21,471 bases of DNA from Blastocatellia bacterium. Its GTDB lineage: Bacteria > Acidobacteriota > Blastocatellia > Chloracidobacteriales > JADJPF01. The notes beneath the pieces were generated by a model, which was given only the letters and a program-made list of their open reading frames with translations, searched no databases and was not told the origin of the DNA. The translations under genes and the position numbers were made by a program. Shown one piece after another: positions 1,681-21,471 of the stretch; positions within the stretch are counted from its first letter, which is position 1, and each line of letters starts with the position of its first letter. Where the stretch lies: assembly GCA_016713405.1 (NCBI GenBank), contig JADJPF010000015.1, forward strand, positions 64,001 through 85,471. Direction: 5' to 3'.

Positions 1681-2796
1681 AACATTACTTTGACGAAATC
1701 TTAGTGATGCTAACAGTAACATTACTAGTCCCATAACTAACATTACTGCTCCATTTACCCATAAATGATTAAAACCTGCTCCACGTAAAATAATGCCTCG
1801 CAAAGTATCAATATAGTAAGTTGTAGGAATAAAACGGCTTATCAACCAAAATATTTTTGGCATATTATCTAATGAAAAAATATAGCCTGACAAAAATATT
1901 GCTGGTAGCAATGTACTCATCGCCATTTGCATTGCTTCGCTTTGAGTACGCGCTTTTGTAGAAATAATTAGCCCCATCCCTAAAATAGTTAAAATAAAAG
2001 GAATAGAGAAAATTAATAGTAAAATTACACTTCCATGAATTGGTACATCAAAAGCATAACGCATCACCAGTAAAATCCAGCAAAGCTCAAAAAATCCTAA
2101 TATCCCATAAGGCAACATCTTTCCTACCATTAACCCTAATGGGCTAATAGGTGCTAGGTAAAGATTTTCTAATGTTCCTCGTTCCCGTTCTTTTACTAAA
2201 GAAAATGAAATTAAAGCAATTAACATCATTTGTAAGACTACAGCGACTAACCCAGGAATAAAAAAGTTAGCTGAACGAGTGCTGGGATTAAAAAGAACTT
2301 TATGCCGTGATTCAACTACACCAGGTGATTTTGCTACAATTCGTTTTAATGATTCTTGTAAAGTAATAGCACTAGATACATTTACTGCCTCACTTGTAAC
2401 ATTTGATTCCGAACCATCAACTAGCAGTAAGACACTAGTGTTTATACCTTTTTGCAGAGCGCGTGAGTAATCTTCAGGAATTTTAATTCCAACTTTTGCT
2501 TCTCCTGCAACAATTTTATCATAAAGTTCCTTATCAGAATTTACTCTAGCAACTACATTAAAGTCATCACTATTAATATAACGTTCAATTAAAAGATGAC
2601 TTTCCTGAGTTTTTGCCAGGTCATAAACTACTGTTTTTATTTGACGTACATTAGTATCTACAGCAACGCCTAGTAAAACCATTTCAAAAATAGGTATAAA
2701 AAGAGCAAAAAATAATGTTGTTGGGTCGCGTAGTATCTGAAGTATTTCTTTCTTAAAAACAGGAATTAAGCCTGAAAAAAGATAATTTTCACTCAT
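1678..2796 (-). CDS. ABC-2 type transporter permease of the YhhJ/YadH-like family (372 aa)
   Basis: There is an N-terminal cytoplasmic segment, then a large periplasmic loop, then a C-terminal cluster of 5-6 hydrophobic helices. This is typical of ABC-2 permeases. A strong SD (AGGAGGT) lies 8 nt upstream of the ATG. The gene overlaps the upstream ATPase stop by 4 nt. Confidence 0.8.
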
Positions 2797-3774
2797 AACT
2801 TTGTACCTCCTAACAGCGATATGTTGTTAGTAATATTATTAGTTAGAGTGACAAAAATATCTTCTAAGGAAGGTCTGATAGGGTTTATTACTAGATTTGT
2901 AAAACCTGCTGTTTCTAGGTCTTCTTTCAATTTGGAACTACTTTGAGTCTTTTCACAAAGTATATGAATTGATTGACCAAAAATTGTTGATTCCCAAACA
3001 TAGGGAAGATCTTTAATAAAACTTAATGCTTCAGATGGAGAGCTAGAAAGAATTTCTAAGCGTGTTGAACCAACAGGAGAAACTTCTGGCAACGTTCTTA
3101 GTTCGTCAACAGTTCCAACAGCAATTAAGTTTGATAAATAGATATAACCAACACGGCGGCATCTTTCGGCCTCATCCATATAATGTGTTGTAACAAAAAT
3201 AGTTATCCCATTAGCAGAAAGCTTAAAAAGCAGATCCCATAAAGCCCGACGTGCTACAGGGTCAATTCCCGCAGTAGGTTCATCTAGGAATAATACTTCA
3301 GGTTCATGAATAATTGCACATCCTAAAGCTAAACGTTGTTTCCAACCACCAGATAAAGCACCTGCACGACGTTCTAAATAAGGGGTTAAGCCTGTTAGCT
3401 CTAAAACTTCAGGTTTACGTAAGCTTTATTTGATCTTTTTTCATATGGTATATGCCAGCATAAAAATCTAAATTCTCGTTTACTGTTAGCTCTTCATAAA
3501 GACTAAATTTTTGAGACATATAACCAATGCGTTTTTTAATTTTAAAAGAATCTTTATGAATATCTAAACCAAGAATTTTACCTTCACCAGTTGCATGAGT
3601 AATTAGCCCACATAAAGCTTTAATAATCGTAGTTTTACCAGAGCCGTTTGGCCCAAGTAAGCCAAAGATTTCACCTGTTTTTACTTGAAAAGAAACTTTG
3701 TTAACAGCAATAAATTTGCCAAATTTGATGGTTAAATCTTTTGTTGAAATTACTGGATCTATTGTATTTATCAT
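2793..3774 (-). pseudogene. ABC transporter ATP-binding protein with a single frameshift near 3415-3440
   Basis: The N-terminal ORF (3415..3774) carries Walker A, 'GPNGSGKTT'. A second frame, open from 3425 down to 2793, carries the signature '[12 protein letters not shown]', Walker B '[12 protein letters not shown]' and the H-loop 'TTHYMDEAE'. I translated the 3181-3428 frame by hand. It is continuous with the ORF 2793..3179. The frame switch lies at a T6 run (3434-3439). Confidence 0.8.
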
Positions 3775-8402: not shown

Positions 8403-8708
8403 ATGACAAATAAAGAAATTCAAAAATTAATAGAATTTATTATCACTCAACAAGCAGAAATGTCTGTAAAACATGCACAGATACTTGATATTCAATTTGA
8501 AACTGCAAAAAGACAAGGTGAATATGAAAAACGCCAAGCTGAATTTGAAATCAAATTTAACAATAAATTAGATGCTTTATTAGATTGGCAAGCAAAATTT
8601 AGTATTGATTTAGAAGATTTAAGAAAAGAGACTAAGGAATTTAGAGACGACCTTAAAAAACGGCTCTTCCGTAATTCCGTGGAGGCCACAAGATATAGTG
8701 TAGAATAA
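8403..8708 (+). pseudogene. Small charged coiled-coil protein gene, interrupted at codon ~87 by the IS insertion. The last 15 codons and the stop codon are IS-derived.
   Basis: The ORF reads through position 8661 into the left inverted repeat of the IS. The C-terminal 'RLFRNSVEATRYSVE' is encoded by IR sequence. A good SD (TAGGTAGG) precedes the ATG. Confidence 0.5.
8662..8698 (+). repeat. Left terminal inverted repeat of the IS (IRL)
   Basis: 'ggctcttccgtaattccgtggaggccacaagatatag' matches the reverse complement of 9924-9960 at about 33 of 37 positions. Confidence 0.65.
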
Positions 8709-9923
8709 AAAACAAAAATTTGACAAGACTTGACAAGCGGGGTAAGAAAAATGGGAAAATAGAAATTCCGCTAGATATAGAAGGGTAAGAGTAATAGGGC
8801 AGAAATAAACAGAAAAGGAAATAATAATCAAGGTGAAAACTAGAAGAGGGACAAAATGTAGAAAGTGTGGGGAAATCAAGAACTTTCAGGATATGATAGA
8901 AAAATAAGACTAAGGCATTTACAGTATTCAATAGGAAAGTATACGCAGAAATACGACCGAAAAGATATAGATGTCCGTATTGTGAAGGAAATCCAACAAC
9001 GACACAAAAAGTGAATGGTATGAGGGCTAATTCAGCGCATACAAAAGCATATGAGCAAATGATACTAGTAGAGCTAATAAACTCAACGATAGTAGATTGC
9101 AGTAAAAAACAAGCAGTAAGCCAAGAGAAGTAGAGGGATAATAGACAGAAATATAAAAACAAGTGTGGACTGGAAATATACGAAAGTGTACCAGTGATAG
9201 GAATAGATGAGATAGCACTAAAAAAAGGACATAAGGATTATGTAGCAATAATATCAACAATGGGGGCAAGGGTAAATATAGCAGGAACAAAAAACAGTAA
9301 AAACATTCTTAAGTAATATACCATCACGAATTAAACTAACTATAGAAAGAGTATGTACAGATCTGTATGAAGGATATATAAATGCAGCAAAAGAAGAGCT
9401 TCCTCAAGCACAAATAGTAGCGATCGTTTTCACATAGCGAAAGCTTATGAGAAGGTGCAGCAAAAAAAGAAAAAGTGAGTTAAAAGACTAAAAAAAGATT
9501 GCCGAAACCGAGTATGAAGAACAAGGGGTATGTGGACTTTTAGGCAAAATCCTCTTGACCTAGAAGTAGAACAACAATCACAACTAAAAAAGTCTTTTCT
9601 TTATCTCCTTCATTAAAATGGCTATGACTTTAGAGAAGAGCTAACAGATATTTTGACAAATCTCCATCAAAAATAGAAGCAACCCTTTCTATTTTATCTT
9701 GGGTTGATAGAGTTAAGAATAGTTCTTTATCCTGTTTTGATTCTTTTTAACTACTCTTAACAATCCCTAGATTCTATTACTAATTATTTTCTTGACCGTG
9801 AATCCTCTGGCTTTGTTGAAGGTCTTACAACAAAATTAAAGTTCTTAAACGTCGTTCTTATGGCATTTTACCTCTTCTCGTATTTTCAAAGCGATCTCCA
9901 GGTTATTTTTTGCTTTTCTTACA

Positions 9924-9960
9924 ACGCTATATCTTGTGGCCTCCACGGGTCGGAAGAGCC
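9924..9960 (-). repeat. Right terminal inverted repeat of the IS (IRR)
   Basis: The reverse complement is 'ggctcttccgacccgtggaggccacaagatatagcgt'. Confidence 0.65.
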
Positions 9961-10000
9961 AAAAACTAAAAGATACCCTTAAAAAACTAAAGATACCCTT
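9961..10000 (+). repeat. Near-perfect 20-bp tandem duplication immediately outside the IRR
   Basis: Copy 1 is 'aaaaactaaaagataccctt' (9961-9980) and copy 2 is 'aaaaaactaaagataccctt' (9981-10000). Confidence 0.6.
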
Positions 10001-10132: not shown

Positions 10133-11641
10133 CTACGTTATTTTATCTAGTAACCAGGTAGGCCATTCAGATTCTTTATTCCAAAGTAAATATTCCTTTA
10201 CATAATCTTGCAACATCACTCTAAAAAAAATAGGCAGTTGAAATTGCCCGTTTCCTTTCCAGTAATTTTCCCAATAAATCGGAAGAGAAAAATTAAATAT
10301 TTTGTTAGCTTCCTGGATAATTCGTTGAAATTGATTGGTTTGCATTTGAAGACTATCCAGGAAATCTTGTTGTAAAAATTTAATACCTGATATGTCTGGT
10401 TGCCAACAATCAATCTTTTGCTCTCGCTCAATTTTCTGCTCTAAAACCTTCCATTTGTTATTAGCAGTTTTTCTTAAGACTCCAGCCTTAAAAAGCATTG
10501 GCAGCAATTCAATTACTACTTTTTTATTAAAAATAGCTAGCTGAGAGCTTTTTGCTGATAAATAAACCTCAATTTCTTGGGCAGTAACGGATAAATCTGT
10601 AACATCAATATTAGTAAAATCACATAATGCGTTAGCTAGGCGTTTAAGATAGATTTTTAAGCTAGGTGAAGGCTTTACAGATGGACAAGCATTGTCCAAG
10701 TCCCAAGAATAATTAAGCTCTGTGCGCCAAATTTCTGGTCTTTGCTGCCACCAGTTTAAGAGTAAAATTAGCAATACTACTAAACGTTCTAAAGGTTTTG
10801 TTTCTGGAATAATTACTGTAAGTCGTGAGCCTTCATTAATTTGCTCTGCATATTCTAGGCATTCTTTTAATAGCGTAGGCAAATAATTAATTTTTTGAAG
10901 AAACTCTGTTGCCAAAGAAACAAAGTTTGATAAATCACATTCAGCAAATAAAGAGCATAAATTTAATTTTCGTTTTACTCCAAAACAAGTAACAAACTCT
11001 AAACTTAATTTATTTTTTAAGTTGGGTAGTTCAGCAATATTAGTAATTTGCTTTAAGTTTGTTGCTACTTGCCAATAAGATTTTGGTGTAACGGTTAGTC
11101 GTTTTTCAAGGTCGTCTTGGCACCAAATAATGATTTTTTCCCGCAGTTTTATTATTGCTATTTTGCAAGCATGATGAGGATCTGAGCCTAAATTAAAGTT
11201 GTCAAACCAGTCATCAATTGACACTTTTGACCAAAGTTTATTTGGACGATTAACGGCCATATCCAACAGAGCAGCAGCAGTTCTAGTTGCTGGATCATCT
11301 CTAAATAAACTTGGGTCAGCACTATAAATGCTTCCAATCCGAGGCATTCCGCTACGATAAAGCAGACCGGAAAAGGCTAGCCCAATAAATAAACCTGTAG
11401 GCTTTTTGTCTCCATAATCTACTTCACTGTCCTTCCACCTTGGCGCACTTTGGTCAGCTTGAAAATTAATGTCAATTAAGATTATGTCAGGGTCAATTAA
11501 TTCTGTCTGAGCGTTAAGTAAATGCTGGGCAGTTGTCCAAGTGTCTATGTGCAGTAAATCTAGCTCATCTGCTCTTAAAACAGGATAAGAAATATAGTCA
11601 TTTACATCATCAATTAATAGAATTTGTAGCTTATCACTCAT
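10133..11641 (-). CDS. Receiver-domain (CheY-like) protein with a ~360-aa C-terminal domain of unknown function, 502 aa
   Basis: The N-terminus 'MSDKLQILLIDDVND...DPDIILIDINF' carries the acidic pair D11/D12 and a phospho-acceptor-position Asp at residue 57. This is the same numbering as CheY. The remainder has no P-loop, HNH or other motif I can recognise. It lies 6 nt downstream of the preceding ORF and has no SD. Confidence 0.7.
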   Translation of the reverse strand: MSDKLQILLIDDVNDYISYPVLRADELDLLHIDTWTTAQHLLNAQTELIDPDIILIDINFQADQSAPRWKDSEVDYGDKKPTGLFIGLAFSGLLYRSGMPRIGSIYSADPSLFRDDPATRTAAALLDMAVNRPNKLWSKVSIDDWFDNFNLGSDPHHACKIAIIKLREKIIIWCQDDLEKRLTVTPKSYWQVATNLKQITNIAELPNLKNKLSLEFVTCFGVKRKLNLCSLFAECDLSNFVSLATEFLQKINYLPTLLKECLEYAEQINEGSRLTVIIPETKPLERLVVLLILLLNWWQQRPEIWRTELNYSWDLDNACPSVKPSPSLKIYLKRLANALCDFTNIDVTDLSVTAQEIEVYLSAKSSQLAIFNKKVVIELLPMLFKAGVLRKTANNKWKVLEQKIEREQKIDCWQPDISGIKFLQQDFLDSLQMQTNQFQRIIQEANKIFNFSLPIYWENYWKGNGQFQLPIFFRVMLQDYVKEYLLWNKESEWPTWLLDKIT

Positions 11642-11647
11642 AAATTT

Positions 11648-13741
11648 TTATTTTTGGAAAACAAGCTGAGGACGAAATCTTATAGCAATAGAATGGTAAT
11701 TTGATGGTGATTTATCTACAAGCAAAAATTCAACTAACTTTTTTTCTTCTCCTTTATCATTGCGAAATACAAAACAGGAAAGCAAGTTTTGAGTTCTTTT
11801 TAGCCCATCGGAAAGTTCTGTTGGCTTTTCGTCCTCTGCTACAGAGTTAGAAATCAGTAATTCATAAAATTCATCCTCTTCTAAAATTAAGGAAAATTTT
11901 ATATCTATAATGTAACTTACTAGATCTTTTGACTTTAAGAAAAATTTCTTGTTTTGTTCTAGTTGTTTAGCTAAGTATTGGATTGCATTACCTAAAATCT
12001 CATGTATTCCTACTAAAAATAATGAGGTTGCTTCTATGCTAAATGGTGGAAATATAGGTATTTCTGCTAAATTGCTATTTTGTTCTAGTTTTGGACATAA
12101 ACAATCATTTGATTTGCTACACTCAGCTTTATGAAAAATAATAGCAATACTACTAGAGTTAATTAGAGAGAATAATAAATGCTGAATAATTTCTTGAATA
12201 GTTTTACGCCAAAGGTCAGCAAACTCTTGTAAGTTAAAAGCATTAGTGTTATTAACAAGTTTTAATAAGTAAGTTTTAGGATTATCAAATTTTGTTACAG
12301 TTCTAATTGCATCTGTAAGATGATAAAGCTCTTGTAGAACGGCGCAAGTATAAAGCACTTCAGCCTTTTCTATAGGCTCATTATTTAAGCTTTTAGCATA
12401 AAGAACGCGGTAACGACTCCGACGGATTAAGGTGTTCATAATTTCATGAGTTAAGCCTTGAGTAAGAAAATATTGTTCTTTAATAATAATTGCTGCTGTT
12501 CGGGAAAGTTTTTCTCTAAATTGTGCTTCCCAATATTCTTCTTGACCAGGTAGATTTAACTTTACACCTGGACAATTTCTGTAAATTACTAAATCAAAAC
12601 CAAAGGCTTTTTTAAGTAAATAAGCATCTTTATGTTTGTTTAGATTAAAAATTATTGTTGCCGTAGAGTTGCTATCTTCTTCAATTATCAGGAGTTTAGA
12701 TTTTTCTGCTGTAGATTCTAATATTGGCTTTGAAGTTAAATTATTAGCTCTTTTTTCTGCTGACAAATGAAGGGTTAAAGAATTTTCTCTGAAAAATAAA
12801 ATTTCTTCTGCAATCCATAAATGAGAAAAAACATTTGCAACGTTTTTCATTCTTTCCAAAGCATCTGTGTGTTTAGAAATAGCGTCTTCAAGTAGAAAAA
12901 TAAAAACATCTATTAAATTAATAGAGTAAATTTCCTCAATTGCTAAAATTAATGATTCAGGAGGCGACTTTCTAACTAATCTAAGATGCTCTTTTAACTG
13001 CTTATTTTTAGGACAGATCCAGCCAGCCATAGCTCGCCATTGTGCTAAACCTCTTAGCGGTAACAAAATAGGAATAAATGCGCTAGGCAGAATTTTGGAA
13101 AATGAAGATAGTCGTGCATAAAGATATTCTGCTAGGTAAATATGCAAATTTTCTGCTGTTATAAGATTGTTTTGAACTGTGTAATTTAATAATGCAATTA
13201 AATTAGAATACTTAATTTGTTTATATTGGTTAGGATTGTTATTTTTATTTAAGTTTGCTATATCCAATAGAGCTTGAAAACTAAAAGGAGTTTTACGATG
13301 ACTACTACTAATTAAAAGAGCTTCAGCAGAAATAATATGTCCAACCGCGCCGCCTATAAGTTCTAAGTGAAATCCTAAATTTTCTTCACTTCCAACACCA
13401 TCACCAATTTCAAGCAATTTACATAAGTCACTGGTTGGATCCAATATTTTGCTAGCAAGCTCAATTAAAGCTTGATGATTATTATCTACATTTTTGTAAT
13501 TTTCTTGCCAATAAAGATAGATATTTTTTTTGATTTTTTCAGCACATTCTTTGGTGTTAGAGTTAGTTTGATAGCCTGTATCCCAGAACTGAATTTTGTC
13601 AGATAGAGGATTAAAACTTCTTTGTTGGGTAAGAAAAAAATGTTGTAGCTTAGGGGTAAAATGTTGCAATGTCCAAACTAGTAAATCAAAGCAGCGTTTT
13701 TGAATCGCTTCTGCATTTAATTTTGCTTCTAAACTTAGCAT
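11648..13741 (-). CDS. Large hypothetical protein, 697 aa. It may be a highly divergent sensor-kinase-like protein, and this call is low confidence.
   Basis: It is an intact 2.1-kb ORF. Weak 'GLTHEIMNTL' (aa ~430) resembles a HisKA H-box. 'IHEILGNAIQYL' (aa ~580) resembles a HATPase N-box. The ATP-lid G-boxes are not evident. There is no Walker A and no SD. Confidence 0.7.
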   Translation of the reverse strand: MLSLEAKLNAEAIQKRCFDLLVWTLQHFTPKLQHFFLTQQRSFNPLSDKIQFWDTGYQTNSNTKECAEKIKKNIYLYWQENYKNVDNNHQALIELASKILDPTSDLCKLLEIGDGVGSEENLGFHLELIGGAVGHIISAEALLISSSHRKTPFSFQALLDIANLNKNNNPNQYKQIKYSNLIALLNYTVQNNLITAENLHIYLAEYLYARLSSFSKILPSAFIPILLPLRGLAQWRAMAGWICPKNKQLKEHLRLVRKSPPESLILAIEEIYSINLIDVFIFLLEDAISKHTDALERMKNVANVFSHLWIAEEILFFRENSLTLHLSAEKRANNLTSKPILESTAEKSKLLIIEEDSNSTATIIFNLNKHKDAYLLKKAFGFDLVIYRNCPGVKLNLPGQEEYWEAQFREKLSRTAAIIIKEQYFLTQGLTHEIMNTLIRRSRYRVLYAKSLNNEPIEKAEVLYTCAVLQELYHLTDAIRTVTKFDNPKTYLLKLVNNTNAFNLQEFADLWRKTIQEIIQHLLFSLINSSSIAIIFHKAECSKSNDCLCPKLEQNSNLAEIPIFPPFSIEATSLFLVGIHEILGNAIQYLAKQLEQNKKFFLKSKDLVSYIIDIKFSLILEEDEFYELLISNSVAEDEKPTELSDGLKRTQNLLSCFVFRNDKGEEKKLVEFLLVDKSPSNYHSIAIRFRPQLVFQK

Positions 13742-13801: not shown

Positions 13802-15419
13802 TTAATCGCGTTCACGAGTATATGCGTCTGGCAATGGGTTATCTACAACAGGACGAGATGCGCGATTAGCTAAATCTAATGTAGTCATATAGATAGTACG
13901 GGTGACTTTTTCCATTTTTTGATAATCTATTTTATCAGGGCTATCTGAGGGTTTATGATAATCTTCATGAACTCCATTAAAGTAGAAAATAATTGGGATA
14001 CCTTTTCTAGCATAATTATAATGATCGCTACGATAGAAAAATCTATTAGGGTCATTTGGATCATCATAAGTGTAATTAAATTTTAATTTTAAGTATGAGT
14101 TATTTACCGATTCGCTAACTTGGCCTAGTTCGCTACTCATTAGCTTTGAGCCAATTACATAAATTTCATCTGGGCCGGAAAGCTCTTTATTAGCTGGTTT
14201 AGTGTCGTTTGGTTCTTTGCTACGACCAATCATATCAATATTTAATTGTGTAATGATTTGATTAAGCGGTACAGTTGGAAATTTCATTAAATAGCGTGAA
14301 CCAAGTAAGCCTTTTTCCTCTCCACAATGCCAAACAAACATTATTGAACGTTTAGGGCGTGACGGCGCGTGAGAAAAGGCTTCTGCAAGTTGTAGAACTG
14401 CTACTGTGCCTGACCCATCATCATCAGCACCATTATAGATTTTATCTCCATTTACGGGCGAGCCTACACCAACATGGTCATAATGTGCGCCAATGGCTAC
14501 ATACTCATTTTTTAGTGTTGGATCACTACCTTCTAAAATTGCAATTACATTTTGAGAGACTTCTTTTTCAGTTTTAACAGCTATTTTTAAGGAGATTTTT
14601 TTGTCTTGCTTTAATTCAAAGGGGCAATTGTTTGACTAACATCACGGAAAATACTATTAGCTGATTGGGATTCTTCGCTAAACATTTTTATTAGTAATTT
14701 TGGGGAAGGGCTTATCACAGGTAAGGAAAAGATTTTTCTTCTAATTTTTCAAAAATTGTTTGTCCTTGTTCTTCAAAATAAGAAACAGTTCTATCCCAGC
14801 TAGCTAAACTTTCAAAACTTGGAATTAGGATAACTGCTTTACCACCATTTTTTTCTATATAATCAAAAGGCTCAAACCAATCTTCTCCTTCATTTCCTGT
14901 TAGGTCATTATAGCTAAGACCTTGTGGAAAACCATTGGAGATAACAACAATTTTGTCTTTAATATCAAGGTTTTGATAAGGGTTGATATTTTTAGATTTA
15001 ATTACCCAGCCATGACTTGCAAAAACAAGAGGTGCTGTTAAATCTGTTTCATTAGGAAAAGCAAAAAAATCTTCTCCTAACTTAAAGCTCTGACCTCCAA
15101 ATGTTACAGAACTATTAACACGGTCTGTTTTGTTACGACGTATTTGGATTTTTTGAAAATATGAACCATTGTCCCCACCAGGCTTTAAGCCCCACATAGA
15201 AAGGTTCATAGCCAAAAACTTGGCCGTCATATTTAACCCTTTAGATGGTGTGTCTCGTCCTTCCATCTCATCAGAAGCAATAAAATAAAGATAATCTTTC
15301 ATTGCTGAAGCATTAATTTTATCTACTCCTGTAGCCCCAGGATTTTGCGCTAACACAGAATTTAGCGGGCTAAGTAACAAGCAAAATAATATTAAATTGA
15401 GTAAAAATTTTTTCATCAA
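13802..15419 (-). pseudogene. Secreted M28-family aminopeptidase, frameshifted once between ~14620 and 14715
   Basis: The signal peptide is 'MMKKFLLNLILFCLLLSPLNSVLAQ'. The middle and C-terminal frame is open from 14620 to 13802. I hand-translated it as '...NVIAILEGSDPTLKNEYVAIGAHYDHVGVGSPVNGDKIYNGADDDGSGTVAVLQLAEAFSHAP...MFVWHCGEEKGLLGS'. These are the M28 metal-binding HxD/D/EE motifs. Confidence 0.75.
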
Positions 15420-17675: not shown

Positions 17676-18065
17676 ATGCCATTTTGTCCTAAATGCCTTT
17701 CTGAGTATAAGCGAGAAATTACACATTGTAATGAATGTGACCTAGATTTAGTTGAAGAATTGACAGATGAAAACAGAATCCATGATATTAGCGATGCACC
17801 AATGGTAGAATTACGTAGGTTTTCAACTGCTACTGAAGCACAAATGATACGAGGACTTTTAGAGCAGAATGATATTCGAGCCTTAATACAAGGTGAAACT
17901 AGTAGCAGTGGTTTATTTCCAGCCGCTACATCAGTAGTTTTACTAGTAGATGGACGAGATTTTTCTAAAGCAAAAGAATTAGCAGAAGCCTACCTTATAG
18001 CAGAAATAGTTATGGATGAAAAGATATTGGTCAGCCTGAAGAAACGGAAAAGACGAAATTGCTAG
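17676..18065 (+). CDS. Zinc-ribbon plus DUF2007-like ('putative signal-transducing') small protein, 129 aa
   Basis: 'CPKCLSEY...CNECD' is an N-terminal CxxC-x10-CxxC. The following ~70 aa have the DUF2007-like pattern. I recognised this from memory only. Confidence 0.55.
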   Translation: MPFCPKCLSEYKREITHCNECDLDLVEELTDENRIHDISDAPMVELRRFSTATEAQMIRGLLEQNDIRALIQGETSSSGLFPAATSVVLLVDGRDFSKAKELAEAYLIAEIVMDEKILVSLKKRKRRNC

Positions 18066-18099
18066 ACAATCTGTAGAGGTCTTAAAACAAACTACTGCT

Positions 18100-18407
18100 A
18101 TGGTAGTTTTAATTACTGTAGATAAAAAAGAACTAGCTGACAAAATAGCAGAAAGCCTAGTAGTAGAAAACCTTGCAGCCTGTGTCAATATTGTTAATCA
18201 AATAGAATCGGTTTATCGTTGGGAAGGAAAGCTTTGTCGTGAACAAGAATTGCTTTTAATTGCTAAAACTGACTTAGCTTTTTATCAACGATTAGAAGAA
18301 AAAGTAAAAGAGTTACATGCTTATGACACTCAGAAATTATAGCTTTGCCCATTAATCGCGGTTCAGAAAAGTATTTGGATTGGCTTAGAGAGTCCTTAAA
18401 TTTATAA
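18100..18407 (+). pseudogene. cutA: CutA1 divalent-cation tolerance protein with a single frameshift near 18325
   Basis: 'AACVNIVNQIESVYRWEGKL...ELLLIAKT' is the CutA core. The ORF ends 'LHAYDTQKL*', but the +1 frame continues 'SEIIALPINRGSEKYLDWLRESLNL*', the conserved CutA C-terminus. Confidence 0.7.
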
Positions 18408-18414
18408 ATCTATA

Positions 18415-18965
18415 TTTAGTACACTGTAAACTAAATATTCTGATATTTTAATCTTAAGCCCCAACGGGGTGACAGATATGTAGCCTAGGGCGCAAGCCCT
18501 ACGTATGATTTAGCATTAAAAGACTATGTCGCCCTTACAGGGCTTAAAGAGACTTAACTATTATTTCCTAGGGCTTGCGCCCTAGGCTACAGTTATGTCG
18601 CCCCTCTGGGGCTTAAGAGTTAAGAATACAAAATTGCTATATTACTTAGTTTGCAGTGTAGTTAGTACAGCGTAAACTAAGTAATCTGAAATTTTTATTT
18701 CTTAAAGCCCCAACGGGGCGATAGATATGTAGCGTAGGGCGCAAGCCCTACGTATGATAATGAGCAATTCCCAAAAAGCCCCAACGGGGCGACAGAAGTA
18801 TTTTCTTAGCATTTAAAGACTATGTCGCCCTTACAGGGCTTAAAGAGACTTAACTATTATTTCCTAGGGCTTGCGCCCTAGGTTACAGTTATGTCGCCCC
18901 TTTGGGGCTTAAGAGTTAAGAATACAAAATTGCTATATTACTTAGTTTACAGAGTATTTAGTATG
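18415..18965. repeat. Intergenic cluster of nested palindromic, GC-rich repeat units. A ~250-300-bp block is tandemly duplicated, and each copy carries a large inverted repeat with ~47-bp arms.
   Basis: The ~47-bp unit 'AAGCCCCAACGGGGyGAyAGATATGTAGCsTAGGGCGCAAGCCCTACG' occurs on + at 18456-18502 and 18705-18751. It occurs as a reverse complement at 18568-18614 and 18865-18910. Short hairpins 'TGTCGCCCTTACAGGGCTT' sit at 18527-18545 and 18824-18842. The flanks at 18421-18455 vs 18666-18704 and at 18615-18665 vs 18911-18962 are also duplicated. Confidence 0.7.
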
Positions 18966-19009
18966 TTCTTATGGTAAAAATCTAGTGTTCCTTTAGCTTA
19001 ATAAATAAA

Positions 19010-19838
19010 ATGTTTGGAAGTAAGTCTAATCCTTTTGCAGATAACAAATCTTCTGTAGATATTGAAGGTGTAATTCTGGATTCAGAGTTACTTCTAAAAT
19101 ATCGTTTTGTTGAAAGAGCTATTAGCACGTTAGAAAAAGCTATTGAATCTTGCCCTAAGAATATTTCTTTACGAGAAAAATTATTAGAAATTTATGTTGA
19201 TTATAATTTACCAGATAAAGGGGCTGAACAAGCCCTAGCTTTATCAAAGATTTATGCTGAATCAGGAGATATAGATCGTGCAAATGAAAATATAATGCAA
19301 GCAAAAGGTCTTAATCCTGCTTTATCAATAAATTTAATTACCCCAAATGCAGAGGCACCTAGAAGAGCAATAACCCAACCCTTACAACCAATACCCCAAT
19401 GCAACATATACCTAGGCCAGCCGCCAGACCAATGCCCCTAATACCTAGACCAATACCTAGGCCATTACCCCGCCCACAAGCTACTTATCCATCCGTCCAA
19501 CGTGAAAAAGCTGTAAAAAGTATTAACAGGAGATCTATCAACAATTACTATTTTGATGTAATTCAAATAGTGGAAAATAGCCGTATTACTGGGATACTTA
19601 CTATTAATGCTACTACTGTACAAGGAAAAATTTACTTTAACTATGGACAAATTGCAGATGCTCAAATGGGGGAATTACGTAGTAATGCAGCTTTTCGATG
19701 TTTTGTTGAACTAGAAGAAGGCCGTTTTGAAATGGAAAATCTCCTGTAGAATTTAAGCAAAACATTACTGCTCCTAATAATACTAATTTGATTTTGGATA
19801 TTTTAAGAGAAGTTGATGAGTCAAAACGCGACCAATGA
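19010..19838 (+). pseudogene. TPR-like N-terminal region, Pro-rich linker and DUF4388-like C-terminal domain protein. Two frameshifts, at ~19363-19441 and ~19738.
   Basis: ORFs 19010..19441 and 19399..19749 overlap in different frames across a P-rich linker (PIPRPLPRP). 'ITGILTI...GKIYFNYGQIADAQ...GRFEME' fits the DUF4388 pattern. The +1 frame after 19738 continues 'SPVEFKQNITAPNNTNLILDILREVDESKRDQ*', typical of the domain's end. Confidence 0.55.
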
Positions 19839-19966: not shown

Positions 19967-21471
19967 CCGAGATAGATTTACAATTCGCGCTCAAGAAGCT
20001 ATAGATTCAGCTACTAAGCTGGCAGAACGTCACAAAATCAACAAATTGACGAACACTGCTTATAACTATGCTTGAATCAAATGAGGAGTAATTAGACCTA
20101 TTTTAGAAAAATAGGAATACGTCCTCCAATGATTTTGGCAGAGCTAGAAGAAGCAATAAAAAGCTTACCTAAAGTTACTGGGACAAGTCAGGAAAGATTT
20201 TTTCCTCCCGCCTTTATTCAACTTACTGCTGCACAAAAAGAAGCCGACAAACTCCAAGATGCACATATCAGCACTGAACATTTGCTGCTTGCTATAGCAG
20301 AAGAAAAAATGGTGCTGCTGGCAAAATACTTCGCCAACACGGGTTGTTAATAAAGACTTGTTAAAAGTCTTAGAACAGTTTCGAGGTGGTGAGAAAATTA
20401 CAGATCAAGACCCTGAATCACGTTATCAATCTTTAAGTCGCTATGGTCGGGATTCAACCGAACTAGCTCGAATAGGTAAATTAGACCCTGTAATTGGACG
20501 AGATGATGAAATCCGTCGGGTTGTTCAAGTTTTGTCCACACGTACTAAAAATAACCCTGTATTGATTGGAGAACCTGGAGTTGGTAAAACTGCTATTGTT
20601 GAAGGACTAGCACAAAGAATTATTTCTGGTGATGTAGAAGAATCTTTACGTAATAAACGCTTGGTAGTATTAGATTTAGGTGCGATGTTAGCAGGTGCAA
20701 AATATCGTGGTGAATTTGAAGACCGCCTTAAGGCAGTTTTAAAAGAAGTTACTCGACCCGATAGCAACATAATTATGTTTATTGATGGAACTACATACCC
20801 CAGTAGGTGCTGGCGCGGCAGAAGGGGCAATAGATGCTTCAAATATGCTAAAACCTGCCCTAGCACGTGGTGAACTTCGTTGCATAGGGGCAACAACCTT
20901 AAATGAATATAAAAATACATTGAAAAAGACGCAGCACTTGAGCGACGCTTCCAACAAGTCTATATTACTGAACCAAATATAGAGGACACAATTGCTATTT
21001 TACGTGGCTTAAAAGAACGCTATGAAGTCCACTTATGGAGTAAGAATTAAAGACACTGCAATTGTTTCAGCTACAATGCTTTCACAACGCTATATTGCTG
21101 ATAGATTTTTGCCTGATAAAGCAATTGATTTAATTGATGAGGCTGCATCACGTCTAAGAATAGAAATTGACAGCCTACCAACAGAGATTGACGAGGTAGA
21201 ACGCGAAAGAATTCAGCGCGAAATAGAGCGTCAAGCACTCCAAAGAGAAGATGATCCAGTTTCACGCGAAAGATTAGCTAAAATTGAGCAAGAAATTTCT
21301 GAATTAAAAGAGAAAAGTGCAGGAATGAAAGCTCGTTGGCAGTCAGAAAAGGAAATTATAGAACGTATTAGTTCTAAAAAGAAGCCCTGGAAAATATGCG
21401 TATTCAAGCTGAACAATTTGAACGAGTTGGAGATTATGGAAAAGTAGCAGAAATACGCTATGGAAGTATGG
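19967..21471 (+). pseudogene. clpB: clpB (Hsp100 disaggregase) N-terminal half with at least eight frameshifts. The 3' end lies outside the window.
   Basis: Pieces in three frames reassemble into a collinear ClpB N-terminus. They are 'MHRDRFTIRAQEAIDSATKLAERHK', 'VIRPILEKIGIRPPMILAELEEAIKSLPKVTGTSQ', '[14 protein letters not shown]', '[49 protein letters not shown]' (Walker A), '[26 protein letters not shown]', '[41 protein letters not shown]', '[37 protein letters not shown]', '[44 protein letters not shown]' and a coiled-coil M-domain. Confidence 0.8.

Follow-up and report, generated by a model that had tools for sequence, protein, structure and literature searches.

What is the palindromic cluster that separates two genes on contig JADJPF010000015.1 of a Blastocatellia bacterium (GCA_016713405.1), and did its two halves arise where they stand? 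In the 21,471-nucleotide stretch analysed here (positions 64,001 to 85,471 of the contig; hereafter the window), the cluster occupies 18415–18961, with a frameshifted DUF2007-CutA1 gene on its left and a weak-TPR/DUF4388 gene on its right (Pfam). The stop codon of cutA is at 18405–18407, 13 nt before the first element starts, and the ATG of the downstream DUF4388 gene is at 19010. An initial annotation, made from the letters alone, described a tandemly duplicated block resembling a transposable element of the miniature inverted-repeat type (MITE) or a repetitive extragenic palindromic (REP) sequence, or possibly a structured RNA. The region is best read, with a probability of about 0.7, as two adjacent and independent copies of a non-autonomous palindromic mobile element in an AT-rich Blastocatellia genome. 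The MITE/REP-like reading was right in kind, as the element is multi-copy in the same metagenome, coincides with contig breaks, faces an empty site in a relative and is built of units that elsewhere flank Y1 transposase genes.

The two copies are named el1 and el2, and related loci carry L numbers. A full arm consists, in order, of an AT-rich tail, an outer hairpin (h2b), a linker of about 12 nt, hairpin 1 (h1), a spacer of about 23 nt and an inner hairpin (h2a), h1 and h2b together forming the two-hairpin unit. Scores in bits refer to the covariance model of the Rfam family RF01687 (Acido-Lenti-1), whose gathering score is 37 bits, and L141 is a colinear relative described below. The features of the region are as follows.

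18415–18419, no strand: left flanking pentamer TTTAG, read from the sequence; homology with L141 stops at 18414
18420–18660, no strand: el1, palindromic, 241 bp, with the termini TACACTGTAAACTAA... and ...TTAGTTTGCAGTGTA
18420–18455, plus strand: left AT-rich tail of el1, a terminal inverted repeat of the short-arm type (inverted-repeat search, family alignment)
18457–18503, minus strand: left two-hairpin unit of el1 (h1 and outer hairpin h2b), degenerate, 19.0 bits and thus under the gathering score
18528–18545, plus strand: right-arm inner hairpin h2a of el1 (GTCGCCCTTACAGGGCTT), 21–22 nt upstream of h1, as family-wide
18567–18613, plus strand: right two-hairpin unit of el1 (h1 CCTAGGGC-TTGC-GCCCTAGG, linker, h2b), 45.9 bits
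18615–18660, plus strand: right AT-rich tail of el1, long-arm type (inverted-repeat search, family alignment)
18661–18665, no strand: pentamer GTTAG, common to el1 and el2, read from the sequence
18666–18956, no strand: el2, 291 bp, with the full-length family structure tail-h2b-h1-h2a / h2a-h1-h2b-tail (family alignment)
18706–18752, minus strand: left-arm two-hairpin unit of el2, 37.6 bits
18776–18793, minus strand: left-arm inner hairpin h2a of el2, found in all other full-length copies
18824–18841, plus strand: right-arm inner hairpin h2a of el2 (hairpin pattern count; position relative to h1)
18863–18909, plus strand: right-arm two-hairpin unit of el2, 42.2 bits
18957–18961, no strand: right flanking pentamer TTTAG; homology with L141 picks up again at 18962

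The elements start with TACA(C/G)YGTAAACTAA and end with the reverse complement of the same sequence, and their AT-rich tails, 36–46 nt long, end in TACAGYGTAAACTAAG. The 47-nt unit occurs four times, two per strand, as the initial annotation had it: the 16-mer TAGGGCTTGCGCCCTA, which is its palindromic core, is present four times in the window, always in this region, where shuffles predict 0.10 occurrences and none of 100 shuffles reaches four. Hairpins of the GCCCC-N3-GGGGC type with their flanks number seven (0.08 expected); among the seven are the third hairpin described earlier, at the two plus-strand h2a positions 18528–18545 and 18824–18841, and the additional copy at 18776–18793. Two large inverted repeats had also been described; one pair is as stated (55-nt arms, 67-nt spacer), whereas the other has 46-nt arms and a spacer of 114 nt instead of about 65. 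Each block, taken as single-stranded DNA, folds into one long hairpin (el1, −64.7 kcal/mol, z = −12.0; el2, −72.1 kcal/mol, z = −10.3), and for neither is any of 200 shuffles as good. The sole sigma-70-like match of the region lies at 18946–18975, 35 nt upstream of the DUF4388 start, its −35 hexamer TTTACA being taken from the outward-facing end of the right tail of el2; it is a consensus match only, without enrichment over shuffles.

The copies belong to a dispersed family. Three short-read contigs with the same genes end 26 nt inside the left tail, which is the usual signature of a genomic repeat, and the Joint Genome Institute (JGI) contig L001, from the same strain (99% identical), spans the insertion site. 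A metagenome scan with hairpin 1 retrieved further AT-rich contigs of the same JGI sample (Ga0268299), on which full-length copies are located at unrelated loci with 84–99% identity, so the unit is not confined to this place; a scan of the genome collection with hairpin 1 plus linker yielded three stretches only, none of them from the host. A mobile repeat of this kind accounts for the breaks of short-read assemblies at these sites in these genomes. The second element of L001 (7395–7700, compared with window 18666–18956) is a different family member, only 72–78% identical, and past it L001 contains an amino-oxidase gene instead of the DUF4388 gene, while the gene order of the window is backed by L141; L001 has either undergone a rearrangement at the repeat or been assembled as a chimera.

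These copies also bear on the earlier proposal that a block of about 250 bp was tandemly duplicated in place and then received a small insertion. Direct repeats of 158 nt at 96% identity and 54 nt at 94% speak for it, a third of 40 nt being 83% identical. However, el2 is 99% identical to the copy in L068 and 98% identical to that in L081, both at other loci, and 93% identical to el1 with a further 50 gap columns. As el2 is nearer to distant copies than to its neighbour, the pair is not a local tandem duplication, and the left tails of el1 and el2 share just 83% identity in the direct-repeat comparison. The extra half-unit supposedly inserted in the second copy (18776–18798) is the family norm, as all other full-length copies have it; the loss, of about 50 nt, is on the side of el1, a deletion variant without the left-arm inner hairpin, as shown by a gap of about 50 columns in the alignment with eight other copies. 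Duplication in place is hence scarcely credible.

An empty site supports insertion. L141 (GCA_964492845.1) is colinear with the window at 92–94% identity, with the gene order cutA, DUF4388 and ClpB, but has 13 nt in place of the 547 nt at 18415–18961, and the outer pentamers mark the exact points where the homology between the two breaks off and restarts. The 20.9-kb L141 locus is free of the element, which makes el1 and el2 insertions. As judged from L141, where the spacer is 67 nt, the genes on either side do without them. The 13 nt of L141 have diverged from the window flank, too far for a target duplication to be read from them; the pentamer at 18415–18419 is either a target-site duplication or a cleavage/target pentamer.

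The two-hairpin unit has a name. A scan of the whole window at gathering thresholds returned RF01687 as the sole Rfam family, and three of the four units attain its gathering score. Both hairpins and the conserved unpaired linker between them (GGCUA...UAUG.CG) are covered by the match, and since the alignment takes in this linker, the identity amounts to more than the possession of two GC hairpins. The microRNA families that matched in E-value mode, among them MIR841 (45 bits; gathering score, 200), are far below their gathering scores and were set aside as artefacts produced by the long hairpin. Acido-Lenti-1 was described from 89 representatives, mostly clustered in Lentisphaera araneosa, with other copies in Koribacter and Rhodopirellula and singletons in a few genomes and environmental reads; no function was offered beyond that of a small RNA (sRNA), and copies were sometimes found near group II introns (Weinberg et al. 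2010, PMC2864571). The host here is an acidobacterium, in agreement with the family name, and the Rfam scan finds nothing intron-like in the window. The model differs from the present copies in lacking a third, upstream hairpin that is part of the conserved module here, and the window copies additionally have AT-rich tails.

The family is also associated with transposase genes. The exact 23-nt hairpin-1 motif is present in at least 120 metagenome stretches with GC contents of 30–68%, where the units occur as singles, as head-to-head or tail-to-tail doublets and as direct arrays. In 9 of 120 hairpin-1 loci, tblastn detects an open reading frame (ORF) of about 150 aa for a HUH/Y1 transposase, with a minus-strand unit to the left and a plus-strand unit to the right regardless of the strand of the ORF. 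Two of the ORFs, scanned against PF01797, gave E values of 2e-25 and 2e-18 (89.5 and 67.1 bits), and against NF033573 (cutoff 55) the protein of L071 scores above the cutoff (70.2 bits) and that of L094 below it (48.2 bits). The ORFs found through the motif fall into four lineages with a mutual identity of at most 43%, all containing DHVH, WQ and Y-I-x2-Q-x2-HH. Five aligned proteins (131–154 aa as aligned) have the invariant columns D54, H55, V56, H57, W95, Q96, Y115, I116, Q119, H122 and H123, and the Y1 profile matches the structures of the ISDra2 and IS608 TnpA transposases (PDB 2xm3, 2a6m) with E values of about 1e-12.

The association holds in the reverse direction. A profile search gave more than 7,700 Y1 homologues at E ≤ 1e-10, and nine gene loci were picked by protein similarity alone, from Planctomycetota, Chlamydiota, Verrucomicrobiota, Acidobacteriota including Pyrinomonadaceae, and other metagenome-assembled genomes (MAGs). 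All nine have two-hairpin flanking repeats. RF01687 reaches its gathering score directly beside the gene in six of them, on both sides in five (minus left, plus right) and only downstream in L139; for the other three the units were recognised by inspection, L130 and L138 containing inverted pairs, whereas in L143 the gene has a unit to either side. The Chlamydiota locus contains four minus-strand units upstream and three plus-strand units downstream of the gene, and the Pyrinomonadaceae (Blastocatellia) locus possesses the hairpin arms without AT-rich tails. Protein P0008, on a 32.6-kb JGI contig, was considered as the Y1 enzyme of the host and rejected, as it is not from the host metagenome; its locus is nonetheless positive for units. 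In total, a Y1 gene with inverted flanking repeats is present in the related loci L071, L094, L105, L126, L127, L132–L138 and L143, and not in the window.

Acido-Lenti-1 is the flanking inverted repeat of a Y1 transposase subclass, a moderately new result; the literature search returned no paper connecting RF01687 with a transposase. A family catalogued since 2010 as a functionally unassigned sRNA gains in this way a testable identity, namely the cognate hairpin repeat of an IS200-like Y1 group, and the cross-phylum hairpin 1 together with its 150-aa enzyme offers a defined protein–DNA pair for biochemistry. At locus L132 (660–5489), an IS1595-type DDE transposase gene occurs three times, in alternation with the Y1 gene and six Acido-Lenti-1 units; the hairpin repeats may be a target of this IS1595-type insertion sequence (IS), just as REPs are of some others.

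The doublet in L119 connects the gene-bearing and gene-less forms. It has the same arms as the gene-bearing L071 element and retains the last 20 codons of the gene, and is therefore a deletion intermediate. Together with the arms that flank the Y1 gene elsewhere, it makes the window elements gene-less derivatives: by their sequence, el1 and el2 are putatively two Y1-flanking arms joined head to head without the gene, that is, deletion derivatives comparable to MITEs and to REPINs (REP doublets forming hairpins). In the arms of L071, L042, L099 and L119, another GC-rich inverted sequence (GGCGGCGCGGAGCGCCGC...) is often found beyond the tail on both sides.

The third hairpin is likewise a family property. 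A strict h2-type hairpin ends 20–25 nt upstream (mode 23) in 78 of 232 distinct hairpin-1 sites, with 3 in the control window. Across 40 diverse modules, 90.6% of the cells of the three-helix structure are paired (77% in shuffles, at most 59% with slid partners), and 15 of 18 pairs display compensatory changes; the rows were chosen by a relaxed hairpin filter, which biases the paired percentage upward and leaves pair-type diversity unaffected. RNAalifold on the MAFFT alignment does not call this hairpin because variants with 6-bp stems are out of register, while a count of the named structure on the same alignment backs it. In L139 (4560–4740), the h2-type hairpin alone (TTAGGGACGAAGTCCCGACA..) is repeated seven times in tandem with a 23-nt period between two full units; the small hairpin evidently can amplify independently of hairpin 1.

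RF01687 is classified in Rfam as "Gene; sRNA", and in both Rfam and the describing paper it is a trans-acting sRNA, whereas here it behaves as a DNA repeat flanking Y1 transposase genes. The units could accordingly be taken for a structured RNA, either the Acido-Lenti-1 sRNA itself or a cis-acting element, such as a stabiliser or terminator at the 3' end of cutA or an insulator before DUF4388. In addition to the Rfam listing, covariation backs both hairpins, and the element starts 13 nt after the cutA stop codon. E. coli REP elements are known to stabilise upstream mRNA, which counts in the same direction. However, the units lie on both strands of a single element, in arrays and inverted around a transposase gene, and the syntenic L141 functions with its short spacer and no element. 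No enrichment was found in the region for terminator-like sites (2 against 0.9 ± 1.1 expected) or promoter-like sites (1 against 2.4 expected), and the microRNA matches reflect only the long hairpin.

The strand bias of the Rfam seed points the same way. On the modelled strand, non-canonical pairs comprise 38 A.C and 8 G.U, so the wobble-tolerant strand is its complement; the A.C excess comes mostly from two columns in related Lentisphaera copies and thus represents few independent events. On the complement strand, the loop of hairpin 1 is GNRA-like in 47 of 70 sequences, and the trinucleotide YAG precedes hairpin 1 family-wide (seed columns 22–25), extended to GTAG in three of the four window units. 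Dispersal, the empty site, the Y1 association and the strand bias taken together are accounted for more fully by a DNA-level repeat than by an sRNA gene, and an sRNA, insulator or terminator as the primary explanation of the region is very unlikely, although a secondary effect at the RNA level may exist.

How a gene-less repeat of this type could move is suggested by well-studied relatives. The TnpA proteins of IS608 and ISDra2 bind to single-stranded DNA hairpins and use a phosphotyrosine in cutting one strand and joining it again. By analogy with REP/RAYT and REPIN systems, when the DNA becomes single-stranded, for example as the lagging-strand template, the GC hairpins of el1 and el2 would fold and might be recognised by a Y1 dimer encoded elsewhere, which would cleave and rejoin the strand at the element ends and put the element back next to an N-T-W-A-N pentamer. 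The elements are thus probably mobilised in trans as single-stranded hairpin DNA. The anatomy, the Rfam identity, the dispersal, the empty site of a relative, the two-way association with Y1 genes and a deletion intermediate are observed; catalysis by Y1, movement in trans within this host and what the 5-bp flanks represent are inferred.

Several points weigh against a Y1-driven origin. By tblastn, neither the window nor some 110 kb of loci from the same metagenome, together only a fraction of the host genome, yielded a Y1 gene. The 5-bp flanking direct repeats are perfect in L086 (CTTAA/CTTAA) and L021 (TTTAG/TTTAG), and well-defined terminal inverted repeats (TIRs) combined with 5-bp repeats are a hallmark of DDE transposases, unlike Y1 enzymes of the IS200/IS605 type, whose chemistry makes no target duplication. 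The AT-rich tails, moreover, are absent in the GC-rich relatives L007 and L143, and may therefore have a different source.

From these points follows the strongest competing explanation, in which a classical MITE is moved by a DDE transposase through its AT-rich TIRs and the Acido-Lenti-1 hairpins are passengers, captured or inserted as a REP doublet. The termini agree with it, as the terminal 18 nt are kept in copies otherwise just 70–85% identical; tandem copies have exactly one pentamer in common, adjacent copies being separated by precisely 5 bp in L001 and L068 as well; and the element has TIRs and no coding capacity. Against it, each terminus in the sampled loci adjoins a hairpin module and no solitary terminus is seen. 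No transposase-bearing copy with these termini is present among the same loci, again a small part of the host genome. The Y1-bearing L071 family, from another AT-rich lineage, and its gene-less derivative L119 likewise have some 40 nt of tail outside the outer hairpin. The order and spacings of the arms are those of the Y1 gene flanks, the gap between the unit and the inner hairpin, for instance, being 22 nt beside the gene in L133 and 23 nt in el2.

The flanking pentamers can be read in either way. They are identical in two of six copies and differ at one position in three; the match is 4/5 in the window and in L081, and the flanks are discordant in L068 and L001b. All flanks on both sides of the window-family copies fit N-T-W-A-N, so identical flanks are possible without duplication and the duplication is not statistically secure; two symmetric ends with a common cleavage or target preference could also produce them. 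A DDE-driven MITE is on balance unlikely, though it retains appreciable weight, and derivation from Y1-flanking arms is preferred.

Among known systems, the present one works like the REPtrons, which comprise REP sequences, bacterial interspersed mosaic elements (BIMEs), REPINs and REP-associated tyrosine transposases (RAYTs) (Nunvar 2010; Bertels & Rainey 2011; Ton-Hoang 2012). Both have GC-rich extragenic hairpins, which may be solitary, paired as inverted doublets or arrayed, one Y1 gene with inverted flanking copies, gene-less inverted doublets as the dispersed unit and a short conserved tag at the hairpin foot. For REPs this tag is the tetranucleotide GT[AG]G at the 5' foot; here YAG alone is conserved family-wide, with GTAG before h1 in three of the four window units. 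The enzyme here, however, is class 1 (IS200-like, Y-x3-Q-x2-HH) and not a class 2 RAYT (Y-x3-NP), and its scores against the RAYT model NF047646 are 27.5 and 30.4 bits, with a cutoff of 80. Whereas a REP is one palindrome of 20–40 nt, the unit here is a two- to three-hairpin module of 47–95 nt; the sequence of the Acido-Lenti-1 module is conserved across phyla, and in the window family terminal tails and 5-bp repeats at the flanks are further additions.

In key motifs and length, the Y1 proteins next to the hairpin motif agree with TnpA-Y1 subclass 1.2. This subclass is defined by DH[IV]H, WQ and YIxxQxxHH with a length of about 148 aa, and was recorded as having low intragenomic copy number, as "REP: no" and as occurring mostly in Cyanobacteria and Bacteroidetes (Quentin et al. 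2018, PMC6006769). The members considered here differ, being flanked by inverted hairpin repeats in MAGs of Acidobacteriota, Planctomycetota, Verrucomicrobiota, Chlamydiota and Bacteroidia; with flanking repeats at all nine protein-picked loci, the absence of REP-like sequences does not hold for them.

The IS200/IS605 family (IS608, ISDra2) shares homologous transposases and subterminal hairpins with the present system. Gene-less short derivatives occur in both, those of IS200/IS605 being palindrome-associated transposable elements (PATEs). The hairpins of IS200/IS605 are in the same orientation on one strand, without inverted repeats, whereas here every gene, and each window element as well, has its arms in inverted orientation; IS200/IS605 insert 3' of a fixed tetra- or pentanucleotide and duplicate no target, while some copies here have flanks with the look of a duplication.

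Classical bacterial MITEs (Correia/NEMIS, ERIC, Nezha) are non-coding, intergenic and bounded by TIRs, fold over their whole length into a hairpin and have short flanking direct repeats. The window element, at 240–290 bp, has all of these properties, but its core consists of hairpin modules that flank a Y1 gene elsewhere, and no DDE partner is known. Acidobacteria and Planctomycetes are further known to contain Y1 genes with unusual flanking repeats in two groups, neither linked to RF01687: the class 3 TnpA-Y1 (atypical hairpins, about 600 copies in Solibacter), characterised by Y-x4-Q and by CnGA at the foot (Quentin et al. 2018, PMC6006769), and the TIRtrons with their TIRYT proteins (Di Nocera et al. 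2013). The Koribacter TIRtrons were considered as a prior description of the present system and rejected, their TIRYT proteins being of class 2 by the motif Y...NP.

Taken alone, the window feature is an ordinary pair of mobile-element insertions. With Acido-Lenti-1 as the repeat of IS200-like Y1 enzymes, the "structuring" of genomes by REP/RAYT-type systems would reach beyond class 2 enzymes, into Acidobacteriota and the Planctomycetes–Verrucomicrobia–Chlamydiae (PVC) phyla. A wider proposal, doubtful at present, is that Acido-Lenti-1 and the Y-x3-Q-x2-HH Y1 enzymes constitute a separate ancient REPtron-like lineage, with gene-less, TIR-bounded palindromes that duplicate 5 bp (N-T-W-A-N). If true, a 5-bp-duplicating HUH/Y1 pathway would differ from the "peel and paste" of IS608, which proceeds without duplication.

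The window has another insertion, of 1.3 kb (8661–9962), which is absent from the near-identical L001 and from the relative L141. It is bounded by perfect 18-bp inverted repeats (GGAGGCCACAAGATATAG ... CTATATCTTGTGGCCTCC), is strongly purine-skewed and contains broken ORF pieces only, among them fragments such as IGIDEIALKKGHKDYVAIIS, which look ISL3-like. This region is probably a decayed insertion sequence.

Five genes are split by frameshifts relative to related contigs, namely an ABC ATPase (2793–3774), an M28 peptidase (13802–15419), DUF2007-CutA1 (17676–18407, with one C missing near 18331), TPR-DUF4388 (19010–19749) and ClpB (20129–21447); the DUF4388 ORF at 19010–19441 is accordingly part of a gene that is frameshifted in the window. 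The window and L001 differ by 14 gaps in 8.9 kb at 99% identity, which together with the split genes suggests indel errors of a long-read assembly and not real pseudogenes. Two adjacent, co-oriented ORFs on the minus strand (10133–11641 and 11648–13741), encoding 502 and 697 aa, have no Pfam match, and both are conserved, not only in all related contigs but also in the relative at 92% identity.

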